NCBI GenBank assembly: GCA_001820875.1
Contig: MHRF01000007.1
Coordinates: forward strand, 59,318 to 118,804
Direction: 5' to 3'
DNA from: Candidatus Taylorbacteria bacterium RIFCSPHIGHO2_01_FULL_46_22b
Lineage (GTDB): Bacteria; Patescibacteriota; Minisyncoccia; Phycocordibacterales; DSPV01
DNA: 59,487 bases
A program made the position numbers and the translations under genes. Within the stretch, counting starts at the first letter, position 1. The number at the start of each line of letters is the position of its first letter. Shown piece after piece: positions 2,024 to 28,135 of this stretch. The notes under the pieces were generated by a model, which ran no database searches, was not told the DNA's origin, and was given only the letters and a program-made list of their open reading frames with translations.

Positions 2024-2031
2024 GGAATTTT

Positions 2032-2425
2032 TGGAGATGGCGAGAATCGAACTCGCGTGCAAGAGAAAGAGGTGAATTGTTCTACAACATCTAGTTGGTC
2101 TGATTTTTTCGGCTCATGGGCTCAAGGCCAACAAAAAACACATGAGTATAGTTCTGTTCCCGCCGTGAGGCGATTCGGACGTGTTCCAGAACGGTAACAC
2201 ATCCTATCCCGAGATTATTATGCCCAAGCCAATGTATCGGAAGTCAATTGGTTGAACAGTGTGCGGTTTTTAAGCGTACACAAACGCAAAGTCCTTCGCA
2301 CCGAAGTACGGAGAAACTCGCGCTACTGCATTTTTGGCAGTTATAGTTTCCAGCCGTTTTAGGAGTTACTGGAGCTCCACGTTGCCCAAGACAACTCGTT
2401 TCTTTTGTCTATGCCGATCATCCCC
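2032..2425 (-). ncRNA. ssrA: tmRNA (SsrA), one-piece
   Basis: The minus-strand RNA starts GGGGATGATCGGCATAGAC and ends GCGAGTTCGATTCTCGCCATCTCCA. The 7-bp acceptor GGGGATG/CATCTCC carries the G3:U70 alanine identity pair, and the T-arm is GCGAG-TTCGATT-CTCGC. About 394 nt, adjacent to smpB. CCA is not encoded. Confidence 0.85.
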
Positions 2426-9109: not shown

Positions 9110-9222
9110 TGTACCGCGTCTGACGCCGGATTCTCTAGGTGTATCCCGAGTCGATGCTTTTCCACAACACACCTCGTAGTATCTATTGTAGACTTAGAAA
9201 GTTACTAGCTCTCTTTTTGTAT

Positions 9223-10653
9223 ATGGGAAACCAGCGATATATACAAGCAGTAGCGGGGACTTTCTTGTTTCTGCTTATGTTTTGTGGCGTCTCCGTTGTC
9301 TATGCATCGGATGATCACGATTCTCATTGGGATTGGGGCGATCAGGGTGGTCGATATTCTTTTTGTGATCAAAATTGGGGCGGGTGGTGGAATAGGTTTA
9401 ATTTTTGCAATGATAGGCACAGTGAAAAGCCGCCGCTTGTATATTTGTTTGCTACTAAATATGCGATTAAAGCAGGAAAGTCGACGACCTTGTATTGGGA
9501 TGCAAAGCGCGCTGACAGCTGTACTGTTTCAGGAAGCGGGTGGAGTGGTAGTCGGCCTATAAAGGCAGAAGAAATTGTTAGTCCTGCAGTTACCACTACC
9601 TACATAATTACTTGTACCAACACATTTGGAAGTTATACCGATTCGGCTACGATTACCGTTAAAGGAGTAATTCCGCCACCCCCACCTCCTCCTGCGCCAG
9701 AACTTTCTCTGGGCGCTCTTCCGCTTATTGTGATTGTGGGCAACACATCGACATTGTCGTGGTCTTCGACAAATGCAACTACTTGTGAAGCTTCAGGCGG
9801 CTGGAGTGGTACGAAAATTTTGTCGAGCAATGAAATTGTTGCTATTTCTGCCACTACGACATATTCGCTTGCCTGCGGCAATGGAATTGCGACAACCAGC
9901 AAATCGGTAACCGTTGATGCTGTTATTCCTCCGCCTCCTCCAGTTGATGCGTGCCTCAATATCGAAGGAGTGCAGGAAACTATTCCCAATGGATATCATC
10001 TCGATAGCGGTCAATGTGTCCCAGATATACCCGAGACTCTTGATCTTTGTTCAAATATTGAAGGAGAACAGACGACTATTCCGGACGGGTATCACGCAGA
10101 GGGAAGCGAGTGTCTTCCAGATGCGGTGCCCCCAACAGGTATAGATCATGTGGTGATTAATGAAGTGTATTACGATGTGGATGCTGTGCATGGAGTTGAG
10201 ACTACTGGTTCAAACAATAATGAATGGATTGAGTTGTATAACGGCACAGGCGCACCGGTTGATATTGGCGGATGGAAGATTTCTGACGCGAACGCCACTG
10301 ATACATTGCCGAGCATTATTTTACCGGACGGCGGTTCTGTAATCATTACAGGGACTTCTACCACCGCTTCATTCTGGGATTTCCACGGGGCACCCGTTAT
10401 CGTACTCAACAGTGCTATTGGCAATAGTCTTTCGAACACAGGGGATGTAGTCTATCTCTCAAATATATCAGGCGTAGTGGACGCGGTAAGTTATGGGGAA
10501 AACACAGATGCTTTTAGTCCTTCTGTGATAGATGTTGTTGAGGGGCACTCAATACAGCGTATTGATCCAGATGTTGATACTGACACAGCGACTGATTGGG
10601 AGGGTTCTGAAGTTCCCACATCAGGGAGTTTAGGGCCGGTGGTGCCGATTTAG
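9223..10653 (+). CDS. secreted protein with Ig-like repeats, polyproline linkers and a C-terminal lamin-tail (LTD) domain
   Basis: Signal-like N-terminus from MGNQRY. Repeats of the type S.L.W....A.SC..SGGWSG....TTTY.L.C. PPPPPPP linkers. INEVYYD...NEWIELYN...DIGGWKISD is typical of LTD. Confidence 0.75.
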   Translation: MGNQRYIQAVAGTFLFLLMFCGVSVVYASDDHDSHWDWGDQGGRYSFCDQNWGGWWNRFNFCNDRHSEKPPLVYLFATKYAIKAGKSTTLYWDAKRADSCTVSGSGWSGSRPIKAEEIVSPAVTTTYIITCTNTFGSYTDSATITVKGVIPPPPPPPAPELSLGALPLIVIVGNTSTLSWSSTNATTCEASGGWSGTKILSSNEIVAISATTTYSLACGNGIATTSKSVTVDAVIPPPPPVDACLNIEGVQETIPNGYHLDSGQCVPDIPETLDLCSNIEGEQTTIPDGYHAEGSECLPDAVPPTGIDHVVINEVYYDVDAVHGVETTGSNNNEWIELYNGTGAPVDIGGWKISDANATDTLPSIILPDGGSVIITGTSTTASFWDFHGAPVIVLNSAIGNSLSNTGDVVYLSNISGVVDAVSYGENTDAFSPSVIDVVEGHSIQRIDPDVDTDTATDWEGSEVPTSGSLGPVVPI

Positions 10654-11747: not shown

Positions 11748-12224
11748 ATGACGCCAAAAAATACAATTTGTCTCTGGTTTAATAAAGATGCGGAAACTGC
11801 AGCGAATTTTTATGCCGCTACTTTTCCCGAGAGTTATATAGGTGCTGTTTTTCATGCGCCCAGCGATTTTCCGAGTGGCAAGAAAGGCGACGTGCTGACG
11901 GTTGAGTTCACCGTCTGCGGAATTCCGTGTGTCGGTCTGAATGGTGGTCCGGCATTCAAACAAAGTGAAGCATTTTCCTTTCAGATTGCAACGGACAATC
12001 AGGAAGAAACTGATCGCTATTGGAACGCAATTGTTCAGAATGGCGGTCAGGAGAGCGAGTGCGGGTGGTGCAAAGACCGCTGGGGAGTATCATGGCAAAT
12101 TACGCCGCGCACACTAGTTCAGGCATTCACAGCTGGTGGTGCAGAAGCAAAACGTGCTTTTGACGCAATGATGACAATGGGCAAAATCGACGTCTCTGCT
12201 ATTGATGCTGCGCGGCGAGGCTAA
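11748..12224 (+). CDS. VOC/PhnB-like protein (3-demethylubiquinone-9 3-methyltransferase domain family)
   Basis: ICLWFNKDAETAANFY...FTVCG...LNGGP.F....AFSFQI......ETDRYW......GG.ES.CGWCKDRWGVSWQI matches this family closely. Confidence 0.8.
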   Translation: MTPKNTICLWFNKDAETAANFYAATFPESYIGAVFHAPSDFPSGKKGDVLTVEFTVCGIPCVGLNGGPAFKQSEAFSFQIATDNQEETDRYWNAIVQNGGQESECGWCKDRWGVSWQITPRTLVQAFTAGGAEAKRAFDAMMTMGKIDVSAIDAARRG

Positions 12225-12343
12225 AATCGTCCGCCAATTGTGCAAGAAAATTTATTTTATTGTTTTCTCTGTTCAACAAAAAACGCCCTGAAGGGTTATT
12301 TTTGGATAAGGTGAGTTGAAGTTGGAGTTTGTTCTTACGTCAA

Positions 12344-12619
12344 TTAGAACGGTTTTGCAATCTTTTCCTCATCCACTTTTACTTGGTGTGAATCAATCAA
12401 TGACTTCAGATGACTCCTGAAAGCTTGCATCGAAATTTTTCCTTCTCTTGCGTCGGAGAGAACTTGAAAACTTTCAGCCTTATTTAGTTTTAACCCAAGC
12501 GCGATGACACCCATATTGAAACCAAGCTGAACCTTTCTCTCTTCGGATAGATCATCCCAATGTTCTACTTGTGTAAAACGAAGCACTTGTTCGCACCCAT
12601 GAATAATAAAATCATCCAT
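12344..12619 (-). CDS. hypothetical protein (91 aa)
   Basis: ORF with the start set at MDDFIIHG, which has AGAAAGG upstream. No family recognised. Confidence 0.4.
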   Translation of the reverse strand: MDDFIIHGCEQVLRFTQVEHWDDLSEERKVQLGFNMGVIALGLKLNKAESFQVLSDAREGKISMQAFRSHLKSLIDSHQVKVDEEKIAKPF

Positions 12620-12682
12620 ACCGATAAAGGTAACCTTTCTTACGAAGAATATCAATTACGCAATACCAGATTTTCTTGGCAG

Positions 12683-12811
12683 GGAGAGTGGAAGTTTCGA
12701 AGCTTACAGCTTCAGTATCCGTTTCTGATTTTTTATTCGCCTTCGGCTCTAAAAAATCTAGAGAACGGCTTCGAATCCCACACGCAGGCATAACATGCCT
12801 GCTCCTCTCCG
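12683..12811 (+). pseudogene. degenerate tRNA-Ser-like element in inverted orientation to the tRNA-Ser gene
   Basis: CTTCGAATCCCAC (12769-12781), a 22-nt hairpin insert ACGCAGGCATAACATGCCTGCT, then CCTCTCCG (12804-12811). Compare GTTCGAATCCCAC-CCTCTCCG at the 3' end of tRNA-Ser (30741-30827). The 5' GGAGAG (12683-12688) can pair with CTCTCC. The hairpin GCCGC-TTGC-GCGGC follows. Confidence 0.4.
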
Positions 12812-12998
12812 TTAACAAAATTGGCCGCTTGCGCGGCTCAATTTTCGTAAAAACGGGCTACTCGGGTATGGTACCCAGAGATTTAAGCCTTGTAATGGTA
12901 TTCTAGCGCATTTTCTGCTGAGACGCCGAGGTACGTGGGTCGGGGGGTCTAGTTTCCAGAAAGTTACAAAAGTGACACAGGAACGGGACACTCATGTG

Positions 12999-13721
12999 TC
13001 ACTTTTTTATCCCATCAAACAGAGAACTAAAATCGAGACCTAGTCGGAGCATTTCGCTACGAAGATGGAGCAGTCCTTGCCACGCTTTCTTGTGGCACAC
13101 CCGGAATGGCTTCCCTGAACCGCACAAACAGGACCGTTCCGCGCTTGGTTTTCGTAGTTGCTTATGGTACTCCTTCCAATTCAGATCCTTCCGCATCGAC
13201 GGTAAAACCTCCGCAATGTCCTCTACCGTTTGAGGAGTAGTATCTTCTGCATAAAATTCAAGTAACCCCATGCTGCCATGTGAATAGTCGCCCCATGGCC
13301 AAATGCGATGGTGTTCATAGTGAACGAGTCCATACAAATACGGTACCGCCAGTTCCTCAACAAATACAAATAGGTCTGAACTCGGCGGAAACTTTCGCTT
13401 TTCAATTTGTTTTACACATACACACACAGTGCCATCCTTATTTCGATGAAGCGTTCGCAAATCAGTTAGCCCTAACTTTTCGGCGATGACTTCAGTGCGT
13501 CCTCCGATTTCATACAGTGCTGGCACACGACTCGAGTTAGGATTTGTTGCCGTGATTCGTACTTGAAAACTATCCTTTAGCGGCTTGCCATCATAAACCG
13601 CATCCATCTCCAGAGTGCCCTCTACCGTGCCAGACCCTGTTCTTTTAAGTCCTGGATATCGTGTTTTTACTGCCGATATTTCTTCATCGGAGAATGCCGT
13701 GGACATGGCTACTGTGCCCAA
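12999..13721 (-). CDS. SEC-C motif protein, N-terminal domain unknown (possible E2/UBC-like)
   Basis: C-terminal CLCGSGKPFRVCH is a SEC-C metal-binding motif. The N-terminal beta-rich region is followed by LHRNKDGTVCVCV. The gene overlaps the upstream TIR gene by 13 nt. Confidence 0.7.
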   Translation of the reverse strand: MGTVAMSTAFSDEEISAVKTRYPGLKRTGSGTVEGTLEMDAVYDGKPLKDSFQVRITATNPNSSRVPALYEIGGRTEVIAEKLGLTDLRTLHRNKDGTVCVCVKQIEKRKFPPSSDLFVFVEELAVPYLYGLVHYEHHRIWPWGDYSHGSMGLLEFYAEDTTPQTVEDIAEVLPSMRKDLNWKEYHKQLRKPSAERSCLCGSGKPFRVCHKKAWQGLLHLRSEMLRLGLDFSSLFDGIKK

Positions 13722-14317
13722 GGACCGGATGGATTATTGATAACAGTAGGACCGGTTGTCGCATAAGACTTTTGTGACAACGGCGTTGCTGTGGAATGGC
13801 GGTCAAGAGTACCCGCCTTAAGCGTGATCTCGCCCTTGTATTGTGTTCGTGCACTCGCCGCTTCATCTGCCCATGTACCTAGGTTGTTGCGGCCATCGTT
13901 GTTTACCCAATCGTAGGTTTTGCAGACCGAGGAAAGCGGCTGTCCGTTTGCTAGGTAGATATTATCTAGCGGATTGATACCTTGCGCATCAGTTTTGTTC
14001 TCTTGGTCTTTGACGTTATGAATGTAGAGGCCAATAATTGCATTGCCGCGCTCCCAGCTGGTGCGGATTTCATAATCGACCCATGGGCGCTGTGATGTCT
14101 CTGCGCCAATCAGCACAACCGTAACCGAGGTGCCTTCAAGTTGTTCCTTAATCCAGTTTTCTATTGCCTTATCGCCCTTGCGTTTAATTTCCTCCCATGC
14201 CGCAGCGTCAATGAATCCGTACTCGTCCTCGTTTGGAAGAAGGTCACTGTTGCGTACCTGGCCAGCTCGCCAGGCATCGCGCTCGTAATGGAAACTGAAG
14301 AATATTTTTCGAGTCAT
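13709..14317 (-). CDS. TIR-like protein of the ThsB / DUF1863 type
   Basis: KIFFSFHYERD...VTVVLIG..T..RPWVDYEI...ERGNAIIG..IHN and the C-terminal YDWVNNDG all match the Thoeris ThsB-type TIR family. The conserved Glu lies in WVDYEI. Confidence 0.85.
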   Translation of the reverse strand: MTRKIFFSFHYERDAWRAGQVRNSDLLPNEDEYGFIDAAAWEEIKRKGDKAIENWIKEQLEGTSVTVVLIGAETSQRPWVDYEIRTSWERGNAIIGLYIHNVKDQENKTDAQGINPLDNIYLANGQPLSSVCKTYDWVNNDGRNNLGTWADEAASARTQYKGEITLKAGTLDRHSTATPLSQKSYATTGPTVINNPSGPWAQ

Positions 14318-14321
14318 AGTT

Positions 14322-14714
14322 TTAGATAAATATAAATATAATAATGTGCGCTACTGCCAACCCTCCGTAGAACAGCCGCATCGTTTCCGAGAATGCACAT
14401 CCACCGACAGTTACCTCCTTCTCAAATGGCTTCGTGTTCATAGAGAAATCTGTGTTGTCACCTTCCGATGTGCTTACGCGCTCGTAGAGTTTGATGAATA
14501 AACGTTCTCGGGAAAGATAGTAGCTATCAAGTCGCCAAAACAGGACGAGGACTACCAATGAGATTAGGAGGTATAACGGATCCACCTCCTTGAAGGTCAA
14601 TGCGAACAGAGCGCCGACAATGGTGACCGCCCAGCCCTTCAGTAGAAACGAGTTGCCGGCCATCCGGTTGATGGTCGACTGAATGAATTCGAGGTGTTTG
14701 AGTTTTGCTTCCAT
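14322..14714 (-). CDS. small 3-TM membrane protein, candidate effector (SLATT-like topology)
   Basis: 130 aa. An amphipathic N-helix, two adjacent TM helices (WAVTIVGALFALTF and LYLLISLVVLVLFW), a helical stretch YYLSRERLFIKLYERV, then a C-terminal TM. Gaps of 4 nt to both neighbouring genes. Confidence 0.6.
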   Translation of the reverse strand: MEAKLKHLEFIQSTINRMAGNSFLLKGWAVTIVGALFALTFKEVDPLYLLISLVVLVLFWRLDSYYLSRERLFIKLYERVSTSEGDNTDFSMNTKPFEKEVTVGGCAFSETMRLFYGGLAVAHIIIFIFI

Positions 14715-14718
14715 ATGT

Positions 14719-15354
14719 TTAGTACAGGTCAGGCGGCAGAACTCCCATCACCACACCTTGAATAATGCAGTTATCTGTTAATACGATCGGCGTGTGCGGA
14801 TCGGACGACTTCGGGCGAAGAATCACCACGCCGTTTTTTCGTTCCAGTATCTTTACCGTCGCTTCGTCGTTGATGAGCGCGACAACGATCTGGCCGTCGT
14901 CTGCGGACCCCTGCTGACGGACGAGCACGATACTTCCATCATCAATACTCACACCGCTAACCCTCGCTTGGTTCATCGACGTACCGACTACACGGAGCAA
15001 AAAGTACGTAGACCCGGGACGTGCAAGCGCGGTTGAGACCGATATGATTGCTTCGACATTTTCCTCCGCAAGCATAGGTGCACCGGCGGCGATGCCGCCG
15101 ACAAGTGGCACCTCAACGGTGGAGACCGAGGAGTTGGATTCGAGACTCGGACTAGTGAGTCGAATTCTTCGTCCTGCGCGCCGAATCAGTCCGGCCTTCT
15201 CAAGACGCTCAAGAGAAAGGACGGCAGAGCGCGGGGACGATCGCTCGGTGACCTCGTTTATCTCCCGCAGGGTAGGCGCATCAAGACCGTGAACCAGGCG
15301 GTTCCGGATGAGGGTATAGACCTTCTTATCGCTCTCGCTGAGGTGATCTAGCAT
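14719..15354 (-). CDS. LexA-like / cI-like S24 repressor (second paralogue)
   Basis: A wHTH N-terminus. Ala-Gly site GIAAGAP, Ser motif VGTSM and Lys in ATVKILERK. The start was set at MLDHLSE (15354), directly behind a TTGCAA-17-TATACT promoter. The ORF extension to 15750 was rejected. Confidence 0.8.
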   Translation of the reverse strand: MLDHLSESDKKVYTLIRNRLVHGLDAPTLREINEVTERSSPRSAVLSLERLEKAGLIRRAGRRIRLTSPSLESNSSVSTVEVPLVGGIAAGAPMLAEENVEAIISVSTALARPGSTYFLLRVVGTSMNQARVSGVSIDDGSIVLVRQQGSADDGQIVVALINDEATVKILERKNGVVILRPKSSDPHTPIVLTDNCIIQGVVMGVLPPDLY

Positions 15355-15414
15355 AGGTATAAACAAGTATACACCCAAGTGGACTTTTTTGCAAGGGCTT
15401 GCTAGACTATAGAT
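15355..15414. promoter_or_regulatory. divergent promoter/operator region
   Basis: On the minus strand: TTGCAA (15389-15394), 17 nt, TATACT (15367-15372). The palindrome GTATA-N6-TATAC (15357-15372) overlaps that -10 box. On the plus strand: GTGGAC, 18 nt, TAGACT (15403-15408), 6 nt before the ATG at 15415. Confidence 0.5.
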
Positions 15415-15768
15415 ATGGCAAAACAGCGCATTTACCTCACTGACATCATGTGCCATGTCCGAAATCACCACCAAACCGGCAGTTTTGCCAAGGCCACAAA
15501 AAAGGGGCGCATGTATTCGCCTCTGCCTGAAAATTACGCAAAGACAGATGTTGACCCCGTAAACCACACCTTCAAATTTCGGTTTCAGCTCCCTTCTGAT
15601 CTGGTCGACCTCATTAAGCGTGGCGAAGCCGAGTTGGTCATGCCGAAAGATGGCCTGTTTATTTTTGCCGGACCAGACACGCAGGAAATGGTTAAGAAAA
15701 TGGGTCGAAAGGAACGCCGTCAACTTATCCACCGCAGCCGTACTTGGCACGCTGATAAGAAAGAGTAA
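15415..15768 (+). CDS. hypothetical protein divergent from the repressor (cro-position gene)
   Basis: A 117-aa ORF filling an otherwise empty 0.5-kb gap. Its position mirrors early genes of temperate phages. No HTH was recognised. Confidence 0.4.
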   Translation: MAKQRIYLTDIMCHVRNHHQTGSFAKATKKGRMYSPLPENYAKTDVDPVNHTFKFRFQLPSDLVDLIKRGEAELVMPKDGLFIFAGPDTQEMVKKMGRKERRQLIHRSRTWHADKKE

Positions 15769-15920
15769 AATGTAAGTATAACTGAATATTACAGGTGGTG
15801 CCTCGCACTCGTTGCCACGCCCACTTCGTAGAGAAAGCCTGATGAATCAGCATTGCTGGTTCCCCGAGTCTTCTTAGCGAAGTGGGCTTTCTCGTTATTA
15901 GCAAATTAATAACGCGAAAT

Positions 15921-17192
15921 ATGAGCAAAGACATAAACATTGTGTACGTGCCGGTCAAAGATCTTAAACCGGCAACTTACAACCCTCGCAAAATCTCCGA
16001 CGAAGCGCTCGCACAACTCAAAGAGAGCATCACGAGATTCAAAATGGTCGATCCGATCATCGTGAATTCAGCGCCAAAACGAGATGGCGTTGTGGTCGGC
16101 GGCCACCAGCGGCTCCGCGCCGCTAAAGAGCTGGGACATAAAACCGTACCAGTCGTGTACGTGAACATTCCAAGCATCGAGAAAGAAAAGGAATTAAATC
16201 TCCGCCTCAATCGTAATACCGGTGAGTGGGATTTCTCCAAGCTAAAGGCCTTCGACCTAGAGCTGTTGCTCGACATCGGATTCGACGACAGCGACCTCAC
16301 CAACATCTGGGATGAGAATCTCGAAACTGAGGACGACGGTTTCGACGTCGAAAAGGAACTCGCCAAAATCACGAAGCCGAAAACGAAACTCGGCGACCTC
16401 TATCAGCTCGGAGCGCATCGCCTCATCTGCGGTGACTCCACCGATCCAACGGTGCTTAAAAAACTCATCGGCAAGGATGCGGTGTCGATGATATACAGCG
16501 ACCCCGTGTACAACATCGGTATCGACTACAACAAAGGCATCGGTGGCAAGAAGTCATACGGCGGCACTGTGAATGACAAGCGCACGGACACTGAGTACAA
16601 AACATTTCTCCGCACAACATTGGTTAACGCGCTTGCCGTCTCCAAGCCCGACACGCATGTGTATTACTGGTGCGACGAATCGTACATCTGGCTCATCCAA
16701 GAGCTGTACCGCGAACTCGGTATAGAGAATAAACGCGTATGCATGTGGATCAAGAACGGCCACAATCCGACTCCGGGTGTCGCGTTCAACAAGTGCTACG
16801 AGCCCTGTGTGTATGGCGTGCGCGGAAGACCCTATCTCACCAAAGGCATCGACAATCTCAACGAGGTGTTCAACAAGGAACTCACGACTGGCAACCGGCT
16901 CATCGATGACATTCTCGACCTTCTTAACATCTGGCTCGTAAAGCGGATGGCAGGACAGGACTACCAGCACGCCACGGCAAAACCGCCCACTCTCCACGAA
17001 AAAGCCATCCGGCGTTGCACTTGTCCGAGTGATCTCATTCTCGATTCGTTCGGTGGATCGGGCAGCACCTTAATAGCAGCAGAACAACTGAAGCGACGCT
17101 CCGCCCTAGTCGAATTGGAGCCGATATTCTGCGACCTCATCATCAAGCGATATGAAGCACTCACTCACACAAAAGCCAAAAAGCTCAATTAA
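15921..17192 (+). CDS. ParB-like nuclease domain fused to a DNA methyltransferase (beta-class N6A/N4C)
   Basis: ParB-type N-terminus (VPVKDLKPATYNPR...GGHQRLRAAKELG). Methyltransferase motif IV-like SDPVYN and motif I FGGSGST. The start was set at MSKDINIVYV. Confidence 0.85.
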   Translation: MSKDINIVYVPVKDLKPATYNPRKISDEALAQLKESITRFKMVDPIIVNSAPKRDGVVVGGHQRLRAAKELGHKTVPVVYVNIPSIEKEKELNLRLNRNTGEWDFSKLKAFDLELLLDIGFDDSDLTNIWDENLETEDDGFDVEKELAKITKPKTKLGDLYQLGAHRLICGDSTDPTVLKKLIGKDAVSMIYSDPVYNIGIDYNKGIGGKKSYGGTVNDKRTDTEYKTFLRTTLVNALAVSKPDTHVYYWCDESYIWLIQELYRELGIENKRVCMWIKNGHNPTPGVAFNKCYEPCVYGVRGRPYLTKGIDNLNEVFNKELTTGNRLIDDILDLLNIWLVKRMAGQDYQHATAKPPTLHEKAIRRCTCPSDLILDSFGGSGSTLIAAEQLKRRSALVELEPIFCDLIIKRYEALTHTKAKKLN

Positions 17193-17925
17193 GGTCGGCG
17201 ATGTCTTCCGCATTGGCGATCACATACTCGGTTGCGGCGATGCCCGCGATGCGGACTTCGTGAATCACCTTGTAGGCAAAGCAAAGATCGCCCTCATTCT
17301 GAGTGACCCGCCGTATGGGGTGGCGTTCGTCGAGAGCAAGGAGTCGTTTATGAACATCAAAGTGCAAAAAAAGATTCTCAACGACGGGATCGTCTCAGAA
17401 TCACAGTACGCGCAATTCACCAAGGACTGGCTCGTGCCGATCATGCCACATCTCGCAAGCAAGAACAGCGTTTACATCTTCAACTCTGACAAAATGCTTT
17501 TCGCTCTGCGCGAGGGCATGGAGCGCTCCGGCATTCGCTTTTCACAGCTACTTGTATGGATCAAAAACCACGCCATCGTCGGACGTAAGGATTATCTCCC
17601 CCAACACGAACTGGTGGCATACGGCTGGCACGGCACGCACGAGTTCAAAAAAGCAAAAGATAAATCCATCCTCATCTACCCAAAACCCAACAAGAGCCCG
17701 CTGCACCCGACTCAAAAACCAGTGGGATTACTGCGTCGTCTTGTGCTCAACAGCTCCGACATTAAAAGCGTGGTGTACGACTGTTTCGCAGGGTCGGGGT
17801 CGACCGGAATCGCGGCGGAGCAATGCAAACGTCGGAGCATTCTCATCGAGCGGGACGAGGAATACTGCCAGACCATTATAAACCGCTTCGAGCGTGAGTT
17901 CGGGTTTAAAGCAACAAAGGTATGA
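17152..17925 (+). CDS. DNA methyltransferase (beta-class N6A/N4C)
   Basis: SDPPYG (motif IV) comes before FAGSGSTGIAAE (motif I). It overlaps the previous gene by 41 nt and is paralogous to that gene's methyltransferase half. Confidence 0.85.
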   Translation: MKHSLTQKPKSSIKVGDVFRIGDHILGCGDARDADFVNHLVGKAKIALILSDPPYGVAFVESKESFMNIKVQKKILNDGIVSESQYAQFTKDWLVPIMPHLASKNSVYIFNSDKMLFALREGMERSGIRFSQLLVWIKNHAIVGRKDYLPQHELVAYGWHGTHEFKKAKDKSILIYPKPNKSPLHPTQKPVGLLRRLVLNSSDIKSVVYDCFAGSGSTGIAAEQCKRRSILIERDEEYCQTIINRFEREFGFKATKV

Positions 17926-18332
17926 AAAAAGACAAGACAGGAGACCTTTTCTTAGAACAGCTCCGAAAAATACCGATTGTACAGGTCGCATGTGAGAAAG
18001 TCGGCGTCTCTCGCAATACCGTATATCGATGGCGAAAGGAAGATCCAGAGTTTGCAAAAACAATGGACGAGGCCCTTGCCGACGGCGAAGCGGTCATCAA
18101 CGATATGAGCGAGTCGCAGCTCCTCTCCAAGATTAAGAATGGCGAGTGGCCGCCGATTGCGTTTTGGCTTCGTAAGCGACACCCGAAATTCAAGGATCGT
18201 CTTGAGGTCGTCTCGACCATTGCGGCGCAGGAAGAACTAACTGATGAAGAGGAAGCTGTTGTCAGAGTAGCGTTGCGCCTGGGATCGGTATCAATCAAAC
18301 CGCCACCTTCAGAGGAAGATAAAAAAACATGA
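17922..18332 (+). CDS. terminase small subunit-like HTH protein
   Basis: HTH VGVSRNTVYRWRKEDPEF. It sits immediately upstream of TerL, with 4-nt overlaps (ATGA) on both sides. Confidence 0.6.
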   Translation: MKKDKTGDLFLEQLRKIPIVQVACEKVGVSRNTVYRWRKEDPEFAKTMDEALADGEAVINDMSESQLLSKIKNGEWPPIAFWLRKRHPKFKDRLEVVSTIAAQEELTDEEEAVVRVALRLGSVSIKPPPSEEDKKT

Positions 18333-19807
18333 GCCAAGTAGCTAACAAGCAAAATAATACTCTTCCGGCGGATATTGCCGACAGAATGTTCCATGATCGG
18401 CGGATTCGCACTGCCATTACCCGACAGAGCCACTTCATGTTTTTTCACTTCTACTTTGCTCACTACGTGAAATACCAGACGGCAGATTTCCAGCGCGAGA
18501 TGTTTGCGCTTACCGAACAACAGGAGATACGAAACTTATTCGTCGTAGCGTTTCGCGGATCGGCAAAATCGACCATCTTCACCACCTCCTACCCCGTCTG
18601 GGCAATCCTCGGTGAACAGCAGAAAAAGTTCGTTCTGATCTTGTGCCAAACACAGGCACAAGCAAAACAGCACATGATGAATCTACGGAGAGAGTTGGAA
18701 AATAATTCATTGCTAAAAAATGACCTCGGCCCTTTCCAGGAAGAAAATAATGAGTGGGGATCTTCGTCGTTAGTCTTTTCTAACCACGACGCACGCATCA
18801 CTGCCGTATCATCTGAACAAAGTATCCGCGGATTGCGCCATAACCAGTATCGCCCCGACCTCATCATCGGCGACGATCTTGAAGATATCGCCTCCACTAA
18901 AACGCGCGAGGGACGAAATAAGACATATCAGTGGCTCACCGGCGAGGTGGTTCCTGCTGGTGACCGAAATACACGACTGGTGATTGTCGGAAACCTTCTC
19001 CATGAGGATTCAACACTGATGCGGCTAAGAGAAGATATTGAAAAGAGCCGGCTCACTGGAGTTTTTAAAATGTATCCGCTCATAAAAGACGGAGTCATTC
19101 TCTGGCCAGGCAAGTACCCGGAAATGAAAGATGTGGAGGAAGAAAAGCAGAAAGCCGCCAATGAGTACGCATGGCAAAGAGAATATCTGCTCAATATTGT
19201 TCCGAGCGACGAGCAGGTAATCCACCGCGAGTGGATACGATGCTACGATGTTGTTCCGCCACCAATTCGATTCCGTAGCGGATATTCATCACATATGGAA
19301 ATCAGGATTGGCATCGATCCGGCAATATCAAAGAACGACGCGGCAGATTATACGGCGATGGTGCCAGGTCTTCTATATGAATTAGAGGACGGATATCGAA
19401 TCTATATTCTCCCCAAAATTATCAACCGTCGGATGAGCTTCCCTGAAACAGTGGAGATGTGCAAAACACTCGACAAAAGTTATAGCGAGGACGGTAACCG
19501 ACCAACATTTGTGATTGAAGATGTGGCGTATCAGAAAGCACTCCCACAGCAGTTGGAAAACGAGGGGCTATGGAATGTGAAAACGACACGTCCAGGCAAT
19601 CATGATAAACGTAGTCGGCTGGCTCTTACCGGAAATCTCATCAAAACTGGCAAGATACTCTTCCCCCGAGAAGGCGCGGAACAACTTATCCAGCAACTTG
19701 TGCATTTCACTGTTGAGAGGCATGACGATCTTGCCGATGCCTTTGCAAATTTAGTGCTTAGTGCCACCGAAGATCCGCCATGTGTTCCGCGCATATACTT
19801 TCTGTAG
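18329..19807 (+). CDS. phage terminase large subunit
   Basis: Walker A-like FRGSAKST and Walker B LIIGDDLED. The C-terminal RNase H-like nuclease acidic residues lie in IGIDPA, VIEDVAYQ and HDDLADA. Confidence 0.8.
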   Translation: MSQVANKQNNTLPADIADRMFHDRRIRTAITRQSHFMFFHFYFAHYVKYQTADFQREMFALTEQQEIRNLFVVAFRGSAKSTIFTTSYPVWAILGEQQKKFVLILCQTQAQAKQHMMNLRRELENNSLLKNDLGPFQEENNEWGSSSLVFSNHDARITAVSSEQSIRGLRHNQYRPDLIIGDDLEDIASTKTREGRNKTYQWLTGEVVPAGDRNTRLVIVGNLLHEDSTLMRLREDIEKSRLTGVFKMYPLIKDGVILWPGKYPEMKDVEEEKQKAANEYAWQREYLLNIVPSDEQVIHREWIRCYDVVPPPIRFRSGYSSHMEIRIGIDPAISKNDAADYTAMVPGLLYELEDGYRIYILPKIINRRMSFPETVEMCKTLDKSYSEDGNRPTFVIEDVAYQKALPQQLENEGLWNVKTTRPGNHDKRSRLALTGNLIKTGKILFPREGAEQLIQQLVHFTVERHDDLADAFANLVLSATEDPPCVPRIYFL

Positions 19808-27808: not shown

Positions 27809-27892
27809 GAGTATTCATGGCGCGGGGCTTTTCAGGCAACACTAAGCCCCACGCTAGCTTCAGGCCTTGCGGCCCCATACCAGTTTCCCGAT

Positions 27893-27953
27893 ATGGCCCT
27901 TGGAAGAGTCGCTGAACGTGGGGTTCAGTATCTTCCAAGGGTCTTTGGGCCAT
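27893..27953. repeat. 61-bp nested imperfect palindrome upstream of the serine recombinase gene
   Basis: ATGGCCC/GGGCCAT on the outside, CCTTGGAAGA/TCTTCCAAGG in the middle and CTGAAC/GTTCAG inside. Confidence 0.6.
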
Positions 27954-28135
27954 GCCCGCCGGATACATCCAGACAAGTTTAGGCCACTCCTATTCAGTTG
28001 TACTTCATTAGAATATCAAAATTTTCTTCACAAAACAATGATTCCGGAGGGCTGTGTAAGGATAAAAGTTACCAACTTCTTACCTACTCGGGACGCTCTG
28101 GACTCCTGGGGAGGGTTGCGTCATTCCTTAGGTGT

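Follow-up and report, generated by a model that had tools for sequence, protein, structure and literature searches.

What does a four-gene operon in the genome of Candidatus Taylorbacteria bacterium RIFCSPHIGHO2_01_FULL_46_22b encode, and does it correspond to a known defense system? The operon lies on the minus strand at positions 12999-15354 of a stretch of 59,487 nucleotides (nt) of contig MHRF01000007.1 (the whole stretch that was analyzed, hereafter the window). The list of open reading frames (ORFs) in the window has four co-directional, closely packed ORFs there, which encode, in order, a LexA-like repressor, a small membrane protein, a TIR protein, and a protein with a SEC-C motif. An earlier note, made from the letters of the DNA, had proposed that these genes form a single operon and a TIR-based defense module. 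Both proposals held up: the ORFs are real and tightly packed, and the TIR and its membrane partner belong to PDC-M50 and to a published listing of type V Thoeris. In our view, the operon is probably a type V-like Thoeris abortive-infection system with a regulator of the type found in E2-only cyclic oligonucleotide-based antiphage signaling systems (E2-CBASS), located behind a LexA-type repressor on a phage-like element.

A ThsB-type TIR and its membrane partner

The third gene of the operon encodes a TIR of the ThsB type. Its product (13709-14317, minus strand; 202 amino acids, aa) matched the Pfam family ThsB_TIR (1.5e-26; 93.1 bits against a cutoff of 21.2) and the PADLOC models ThsB (8e-66) and PDC-M50B (8.3e-62). 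It is 44% identical to the TIR domain of ThsB from B. cereus, with the Glu of the YEI motif aligned, and the putative catalytic residue is Glu83 (in WVDYEI). No cyclase match was found for this gene in Pfam or PADLOC. The Pfam and PADLOC matches to ThsB bear out the earlier assignment to this type of TIR, with its conserved Glu, and there is no ThsA-type partner in the operon, as had also been noted.

The TIR and the membrane protein next to it were already catalogued. In the scheme of Yirmiya et al. (bioRxiv 10.64898/2025.12.03.692087), which sets out Thoeris types V-XI, type V consists of ThsB and ThsF, a DUF2270 protein with three membrane helices; defense by ThsB and ThsF was shown experimentally with Bacillus representatives, and 3'-cyclic ADP-ribose (3'cADPR) triggers the effector in one Bacillus system. 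Residues 3-150 of the window TIR are 100% identical to IMG gene 2709899069, which is listed in Table S1 of that work as 'DUF2270 - Type V', its partner being labeled DUF2270. Based on this entry and on the matches to PDC-M50 A and B, we consider the pair of membrane protein and TIR to be a catalogued system. The earlier view that the gene combination had no name must be given up, all the more since the SEC-C protein is a CBASS-type E2 (below), and the operon is better labeled type V-like Thoeris plus E2 than unknown system.

The second gene appears to encode the membrane effector of this pair. The 130-aa protein (14322-14714, minus strand) matched the PADLOC model PDC-M50A (1.2e-45). In the AlphaFold2 model (pLDDT 90.5) there are helices at residues 2-43, 47-82, and 110-129, and the predicted topology is an N-terminal amphipathic helix that runs into the first transmembrane (TM) helix, a second TM helix with a cytosolic extension, a DFSM loop, and a third TM helix. 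The sequence matches suggest a membrane effector of the PDC-M50A family that is ThsF-like. No Pfam family matched above threshold; DUF2270 and DUF3278 did so below it. Comparison of the model with the PDB (Foldseek) gave just generic helical hairpins (E>1) and no informative structural neighbor, and no ligand-binding domain was recognizable in the protein by Pfam or by Foldseek against the PDB. The earlier note had described this partner as having a SLATT-like topology. We rejected a SLATT identity, as no SLATT family matched at E≤1 either the window protein or 31 members of its family.

The TM-protein family is large, with 5173 representative clusters in an exhaustive profile search. This search did not succeed in bridging the family to DUF2270: the best 150 of the 5173 representatives were all close, and the fusion proteins among these 150 yielded 8xMP, not TIR. 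In two longer proteins, P0278 (351 aa) and P0269 (362 aa), the family domain is the C-terminal part, and the N-terminal part of P0278 is an 8xMP (octameric membrane protein, PF24838) domain. The family also matched phrog_19896 (unknown function, 2e-32), and members of it are therefore encoded in sequenced phages.

A stand-alone E2 with a SEC-C motif

The fourth gene encodes an E2-like enzyme of the CBASS type. Its product matched the PADLOC CBASS 'E2' models (6.4e-32 to 5e-31), and the matches to E1-E2 models were weaker. The top Foldseek matches of the AlphaFold2 model (pLDDT 89.3) were UFC1, the UEV domain of TSG101, and Rad6b (probability 0.84-1.0). In an alignment of 25 sequences, H87, N89, C95, C97, W138, and H143 were invariant. 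The SEC-C residues C193, C195, C204, and H205 (nt 13092-13130) were likewise invariant in 25 homologues, and the Pfam score for SEC-C was below threshold (15.5 bits). The SEC-C zinc motif in the earlier note is thus retained as a conserved C-x-C...C-H pattern and not as a Pfam assignment, and the N-terminal domain that had been called unknown is E2/UBC-like by PADLOC and Foldseek. Judged by these profile matches and by the predicted structure, gene 4 is a CBASS-type stand-alone E2/UBC-like enzyme with a C-terminal SEC-C zinc motif. Neither an E1 nor a JAB gene was found among the neighbors of the operon in the window by ORF, Pfam, and PADLOC calls.

The E2 gene can be read from an ATG (12999-13706, minus strand; 235 aa) or from a TTG (12999-13721). 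The ATG at 13706 is the most likely start because 88 homologues measure 231-236 aa and their alignment begins at MSTAF. With this start there is a gap of 2 nt after the TIR stop codon, and the 13-nt overlap that the earlier note described therefore disappears. The 4-nt gaps in that description are correct, one at the junction of the LexA and TM genes and one at the junction of the TM and TIR genes.

Partners of the E2 in other genomes

In its relatives, the E2 follows a TIR or a CD-NTase, and in L025 (below) another gene. A genome scan with the E2 profile gave 25 loci, and a metagenome scan with the TM-protein profile gave 80 loci, many of them on short contigs (individual loci are cited below by L number). 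The loci closest to the window operon were in metagenome-assembled genomes (MAGs) of Patescibacteria. A TIR precedes the E2 in 13 of the 25 loci of the genome scan, and a TM-family gene adjoins the TIR-E2 pair in six of these 13 (TM-TIR-E2 in five, and TIR-E2-TM in L023). In the other loci that were tested, a CD-NTase precedes the E2, and the sister order is LexA-effector-CD-NTase-E2. Where the gene before the cyclase was scanned, it encoded an endonuclease (SAVED-HNH-type), a phospholipase, or a TM effector. We identify the subfamily as the E2 of E2-only (type II-short) CBASS because its other members follow CD-NTases. The order in the window, effector, signal generator, and E2, matches that of the CBASS relatives, with a TIR replacing the cyclase.

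The E2s appear to have changed partners several times. The WPW..HG and SEC-C motifs were kept by the E2s of all 25 genome loci, whichever the partner, and a His..Cys-x-Cys pattern was present in 23 of them (not in L013 or L025). TIR-linked and CD-NTase-linked E2s were interleaved in a rough distance tree, calculated without support values, which suggests several swaps between TIR and CD-NTase. Of the 80 metagenome loci, 55 had the TM and TIR genes next to each other, as did several genome loci. Most loci of the metagenome scan had a plain TM-TIR pair, and the E2 was added in the subset nearest to the window. At least 20 loci had the three genes in the order TM-TIR-E2; they belong to Patescibacteria, Alphaproteobacteria, Desulfobulbaceae, and Acidobacteriota. 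This is the co-occurrence that the earlier note had proposed to look for.

Some of these loci had additional genes. In Reyranella and Enhydrobacter (L002:2828-3942, L004:10659-11678, and L016:5409-8783), there is a pair of a tailed TIR and an E2 with no adjacent TM gene, and a second, tail-less TIR and a TM-family gene are found 1.5-5 kb away; in L016, a single E2 has four TIR genes around it. In such loci, one effector may serve several TIR sensors. In four loci, an extra gene overlaps or abuts the E2 stop codon: L026:10693-11946 (417 aa), L007:6693-7349 (218 aa), L008:6719-7141 (140 aa), and L009:2035-2442 (135 aa). Pfam gave no match for the 218-, 140-, and 135-aa proteins, and PADLOC and PHROG gave none for the 417-aa protein. 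These genes may be added components of some variants; the window has no counterpart of them.

A C-terminal tail shared by the partners of the E2

The TIRs that are next to an E2 have a C-terminal tail. These TIRs are approximately 200 aa long, and the remaining TIRs approximately 160 aa. In the window, the tail is at 13712..13756 (minus strand; aa 188-202, TGPTVINNPSGPWAQ) and ends in NPSGPW-A-Q. All E2-adjacent TIRs end in P-x-x-[PQ]-[WY]-[ACSG] followed by one to eight residues. This ending was present in 23/23 TIRs adjacent to an E2 and in 0/29 TIRs without an E2 in loci that had room for one downstream (Fisher p=2.8e-15, loci not de-duplicated). The CD-NTases beside the same E2 family share the ending P-x-x-P-W-[ACSG] (PTIIRNPSKPWAQ, SSPSKPWCNV, and FTPRAPWAHEVD). 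We observed directly the domain identities, the conserved synteny, the strict co-occurrence of tail and E2, and the tail shared with CD-NTases. Among the 120 closest homologues of the TIR, 91 had the motif, with Ala (55), Cys (16), Ser (15), or Gly (5) as the small residue, and exactly one trailing residue was present in 68 of the 91. Approximately 24 further homologues of the 120 had a P-x-x-P-H-[SC] variant.

The tail resembles the end of a cyclase that is known to be a substrate of its E2. In the type II-short E2-CBASS of S. marcescens (cGAS-E2; Yan et al., bioRxiv 10.1101/2022.05.25.493364; Xiao et al. 2026, PMC12948482), cGAS ends in ...Y405-G406-E407, and E2 cleaves off E407 and joins G406 to C101 and then to lysines. 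C101 and H87 of the E2 are essential, and G406A in cGAS is tolerated. The resulting poly-cGASylation is reported to activate the cyclase. We infer that the window E2 processes and conjugates the TIR tail, because the aromatic-small-X ending and the single trailing residue match those of S. marcescens cGAS. By this analogy, the tail would be a tag for recognition and conjugation by the E2, and Ala201 would be the acyl donor once Gln202 is removed.

There may be a third kind of tailed client. At L025:4845-5819 (an Actinomycetes MAG, JAJZQT010000011.1), a member of this E2 subfamily is preceded by a gene for a 324-aa protein that is neither a TIR nor a CD-NTase. Its N-terminus matches PDC-M48B, RTasMBL, and LmuA models, and its C-terminus is ...FTPPKPYYDANK. 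Its upstream neighbors encode a Csx27/tm_4-like membrane protein and a LexA homologue.

The LexA-type repressor and the putative promoter of the operon

The first gene (14719-15354, minus strand; 211 aa, counted from the ATG chosen in the earlier note) encodes a complete LexA-type repressor, as that note had proposed. The protein matched TIGR00498 with 138.9 bits (NCBI equivalog cutoff 110.95), Pfam Peptidase_S24 (3e-24) and LexA_DNA_bind, and a PHROG transcriptional repressor. It is 34% identical to E. coli LexA, with the cleavage site and the Ser/Lys dyad aligned. The Ala-Gly site is in IAAG (aa 88-91), the Ser in GTSM (aa 124-127), and the Lys in TVKI (aa 166-169); IAAG, GTSM, and TVK line up with A84-G85, S119, and K156 of E. 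coli LexA. By these matches, the first gene encodes a full repressor, predicted to be autocleavable, with a winged-helix DNA-binding domain and an S24 peptidase. A longer, 343-aa version of the ORF was rejected as an artefact; it overlaps a conserved 117-aa gene on the opposite strand, at 15415-15768.

A consensus scan gave a promoter-like site at 15366..15394 (minus strand), with TTGCAA and TATACT separated by 17 nt and with 11 nt between its end and the LexA ATG. L026 and L008 have nearly the same sequence, arranged alike, ahead of their LexA-like genes, and this site is the putative promoter of the operon. At the other end, a terminator-like hairpin (GCCGCGCAAGCGGC followed by a T-run) was predicted by consensus scan at 12824..12837 (minus strand), approximately 160 nt past the E2 stop codon.

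A palindrome in the promoter is a candidate operator. The sequence GTATAAACAAGTATAC (15357..15372), of the form GTATA-N6-TATAC, overlaps the -10 box and the start of the transcript. In L026 the promoter region, with this sequence across the -10 box, is nearly the same, and in L008 it is similar. There were two exact GTATA-N6-TATAC sites in the window, and four at one mismatch versus 0.73 expected by chance. No regulon can be claimed, because there are only two exact sites and the second falls inside a distant gene region. We regard GTATAAACAAGTATAC as a candidate LexA operator with low confidence.

A different motif was also found in this region. AAGTGG[AG]C lies in the spacer that separates the -35 box of the LexA promoter from its -10 box (15377-15387), and it occurs as an inverted pair (GCCCACTTCG ... 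CGAAGTGGGC; 15819-15828 and 15880-15890) just before the start of the ParB-methylase gene described below. Related sequences, GTGGAC/GTGAAC, were at the same position of the promoter in L006, L032, and L037. This motif may be a second type of operator.

A phage-like element with probably exchangeable cargo

The operon faces a divergent phage-like module, which we recognized with Pfam and PHROGs at 15415..19807 (plus strand). The module contains the 117-aa gene (15415-15768), a ParB-N6/N4 methylase (15882-17192), a methylase (17152-17925), a small terminase (terS; 17922-18332), and a large terminase (terL; 18329-19807), all on the plus strand. The 117-aa protein has no Pfam or PHROG match and is 56% identical to the product of the gene at the same position in L028. 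Its position, with the LexA promoter on one side and the ParB-methylase on the other, would fit a Cro- or antirepressor-like regulator. The two methylases, terS, and terL flank the operon on one side, and RecG, a protein with a lamin-tail domain, and a PhnB-like gene flank it on the other. The window copy sits among chromosomal genes (RecG, glycosyltransferases). Neither a recombinase nor structural phage genes were found beside it, and blastn of window positions 12000-19000 against GenBank phages gave no match. The E2 profile had no relative among the viral contigs of IMG/VR. A direct phage origin is therefore not shown.

The same setting is found around other copies of the LexA-cassette unit. 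A LexA homologue is upstream of the cassette in TIR-type loci (L006, L007, L026, L028, L032, and L037) and in CBASS-type loci (L008, L010, L013, L014, L018, L019, and L025). It is divergent to the cassette in L023, L031, L044, and L045, of which L023, L031, and L044 are TIR-type. The unit faces a phage module like that of the window in L007, L008, L011, L013, L018, L026, and L028. An N6/N4 DNA methylase is opposite the cassette in the Patescibacteria loci L007, L008, L013, and L018 and in L011 (an unclassified MAG), with a ParB N-terminal domain on the methylase in L011 and L013, and a small terminase-like gene was confirmed in L008. Because the relatives repeat this setting of methylase and terminase, with a recombinase in L026 and L028, we interpret the repressor and cassette as the 'immunity region' of a small phage-like element, perhaps satellite-like. 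The earlier comparison of the layout to lambda cI-rexA-rexB stands, as the repressor-cassette unit recurs facing methylase and terminase genes.

Two contigs of the Patescibacteria type appear to have the whole element. L026:2029-11946 and L028:3506-16084 contain elements of approximately 10-13 kb with a large serine recombinase, genes of the size of large and small terminases, one or more DNA methylases, a LexA-like repressor, and a defense cassette. No capsid or tail genes were seen in either. This type of element looks like a satellite or a minimal integrative element with exchangeable defense cargo. The element in L028 additionally has a restriction-modification-like pair of a methyltransferase and ResIII.

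The window has further features that are apart from the operon. A 504-aa protein with a lamin-tail domain (9139-10653, plus strand) adjoins RecG in the chromosomal flank. Rfam gave a LOOT RNA at 27862-27985 (minus strand, 79.5 bits) and a tmRNA at 2029-2425 (minus strand, 94.9 bits), and there are also five tRNAs; these are unrelated to the operon.

Proposed mechanism and alternatives

The mechanism that follows is our inference at each biochemical step, and so are the nature of the signal and the logic of the regulation. The ThsB-type TIR would sense infection and make an NAD-derived signal, probably an isomer of cyclic ADP-ribose. The signal would open or assemble the 130-aa three-helix membrane protein, and the cell would be killed or arrested. 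The E2 would recognize the tail of the TIR, remove the last residue, and form a bond between the small residue laid bare in this way and its own catalytic Cys (C95 or C97, together with H87 and H143). The E2 would then hand the tail to lysines, and the covalent TIR-E2 or TIR-TIR linkage would prime or activate the TIR. The operon would be the cassette that a small integrative element of a phage-like kind carries as cargo behind its LexA-type repressor, and it would therefore be co-expressed with the repressor and autoregulated by it. Self-cleavage of the repressor stimulated by RecA, upon DNA damage or infection, would further derepress the cassette.

Several points weigh against this interpretation. 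The mechanism is drawn by comparison with E2-CBASS and type V Thoeris. The match of the membrane protein to DUF2270 (PF10028) is below threshold, at 14.3 bits against a cutoff of 25, and its place in ThsF is therefore taken from another group's annotation; weak matches to DUF2270 were found in 16 of 31 family members (the best at 3.6e-4), and DUF3278 scores equally well. The Foldseek matches of gene 4 to E2s are modest (E about 6e-3, TM-score 0.3-0.4), a search of PDB chains with the E2 profile found no E2 and recovered SecA and YchJ just through their SEC-C peptide, and the proposed mechanism gives the SEC-C motif no role. The residue after the Trp of the tail is mostly Ala, Cys, or Ser, and that in the characterized systems is Gly. 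The counts of tail and E2 include nearly identical loci (L001-3 and L020/21), and the true number of independent cases is thus smaller. The identity of the signal is uncertain because one of the two type V systems tested was unresponsive to 3'cADPR (bioRxiv 10.64898/2025.12.03.692087). Lastly, LexA could be merely the repressor of the element, with no functional tie to defense.

We considered three alternative explanations, two of which change the biochemistry. The operon might be a plain two-gene type V Thoeris/PDC-M50 system of membrane protein and TIR, with the E2 and LexA as mere neighboring cargo or regulator of the mobile element. Most TM-TIR pairs indeed have no E2 (29 loci with room to judge), the cassette behind LexA alternates between CBASS and Thoeris, and LexA is divergent to the cassette in the four loci listed above. 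However, the tail is confined to the TIRs next to an E2 (23/23 versus 0/29), the CD-NTases beside the same E2 family bear the same tail, and the intergenic gaps are only 2-4 nt. With respect to the E2, this explanation is hard to hold, and with respect to LexA it may be right; taken as a whole, we think it quite unlikely. It is very unlikely, in our judgment, that the TIR is itself an effector that depletes NAD, with the E2 as its activating switch and the small membrane protein as an accessory or anchor. Bacterial TIRs often act as NADase effectors, as stated in the cited literature, and the 130-aa protein has no recognizable domain for a ligand. Nonetheless, the TIR is of the ThsB type and 44% identical to the signaling TIR of B. 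cereus ThsB, homologous TM-TIR pairs are classed as type V, in which the product of the TIR triggers a membrane effector, and the tailed partner of the E2 in the sister operons is always a signal generator (CD-NTase) and never an effector.

The third alternative differs only in how the operon is regulated and in what benefits from it, and it fits the same biochemistry. The operon might mainly serve the mobile element, for instance through superinfection exclusion or through addiction to a prophage- or satellite-like island in a Patescibacteria host, and be constitutive, like rexAB with lambda cI, rather than SOS-induced. The repressor gene comes first in the transcript that includes the cassette, and the layout is that of an immunity region, with the repressor and then the cassette divergent from methylase-terS-terL and with a serine recombinase in L026 and L028. 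On the other hand, the window copy lacks flanking recombinase and structural phage genes, and the E2 family has no match in IMG/VR viral contigs. We consider this reading unlikely, but not strongly so, and continue to favor a type V-like Thoeris system with an E2-CBASS-type regulator behind the repressor of a phage-like element.

There is also a broader interpretation that we offer tentatively, with slightly less than an even chance of being right. On this reading, the E2-only 'super-enzyme' mechanism would not be confined to CD-NTases. The tail P-x-x-P-W-[A/C/S]-x, whose acyl donor is a residue other than Gly, may be a portable tag that has moved repeatedly among CD-NTases, ThsB TIRs, and one or more further enzymes (that of L025 included). 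Because the tag is shared across enzyme classes, one SEC-C-bearing E2 subfamily could then prime chemically unrelated signal generators by covalent self-linkage, and in Patescibacteria a satellite-like element that is gated by LexA and carries terminase genes would have this set as its exchangeable cargo.

If the E2 does conjugate the TIR, then ubiquitin-like priming would be a general add-on for signal generators of both the CD-NTase and TIR kinds, with no need for an E1 or JAB. TIR enzymes are activated by self-association, and covalent chaining by an E2 would be a simple route to it. The shared tail motif provides a sequence rule for finding more E2 clients. The layout of LexA and cassette suggests that, in Patescibacteria, small phage-like elements have CBASS and Thoeris as interchangeable cargo behind their repressor, which bears on the regulation and spread of defense genes in the reduced genomes of these bacteria.

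Comparison with known systems

The searchable literature contained nothing on E2-only Thoeris, on the P-x-x-P-W tail motif, or on LexA with CBASS or Thoeris, and nothing relevant on PDC-M50. In that literature, an E2-only Thoeris (no E1 and no JAB), the shared tail motif, and the coupling to LexA are undescribed. The link between an E2 and a TIR was partly anticipated by Yirmiya et al. (2025, Fig. 6F/S10A), who report Thoeris operons with Cap2 and Cap3 and a conserved Gly in the TIR tail, and also Thoeris operons with Cap9-11 (bioRxiv 10.64898/2025.12.03.692087). As in the Cap2/Cap3 operons, the window has a TIR with a putative conjugation tail and ubiquitin-like transfer machinery borrowed from CBASS. 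Theirs has an E1-E2 fusion, a JAB peptidase, and Gly, whereas the window operon has only the 235-aa E2 and no further gene.

The window operon combines features of type V Thoeris and of E2-CBASS. Like type V Thoeris/PDC-M50, it has a ThsB-type TIR beside a small three-helix membrane protein. It differs in that it adds a stand-alone E2 and a LexA-type repressor, in that the TIR is approximately 40 aa longer and has a C-terminal tag that is missing from E2-less members, and in that the membrane protein scores below the Pfam threshold for DUF2270. Like E2-CBASS, it has an E2 that stands alone without E1 or JAB and has the invariant Cys and two His, a signal generator with an aromatic-small-X tail and, usually, one trailing residue, and the order effector, signal generator, E2; the sister loci of this E2 family are true CD-NTase operons. 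Unlike E2-CBASS, the signal generator is a TIR and not a CD-NTase, the small residue in the window family is Ala, Cys, or Ser more often than Gly, and the E2 carries SEC-C and has no detectable sequence match to solved structures.

The position of the repressor recalls systems whose defense genes are transcribed together with a damage-responsive repressor or governed by one. The window operon shows no homology to RexAB, and its repressor resembles a LexA orthologue (winged helix-turn-helix and S24 peptidase), unlike the helix-turn-helix/metalloprotease pair of CBASS regulated by CapH/CapP or the WYL factor of CBASS regulated by CapW. With lambda cI-rexA-rexB and with these regulated CBASS operons, the window operon shares defense genes placed behind such a repressor in the layout of an immunity region.

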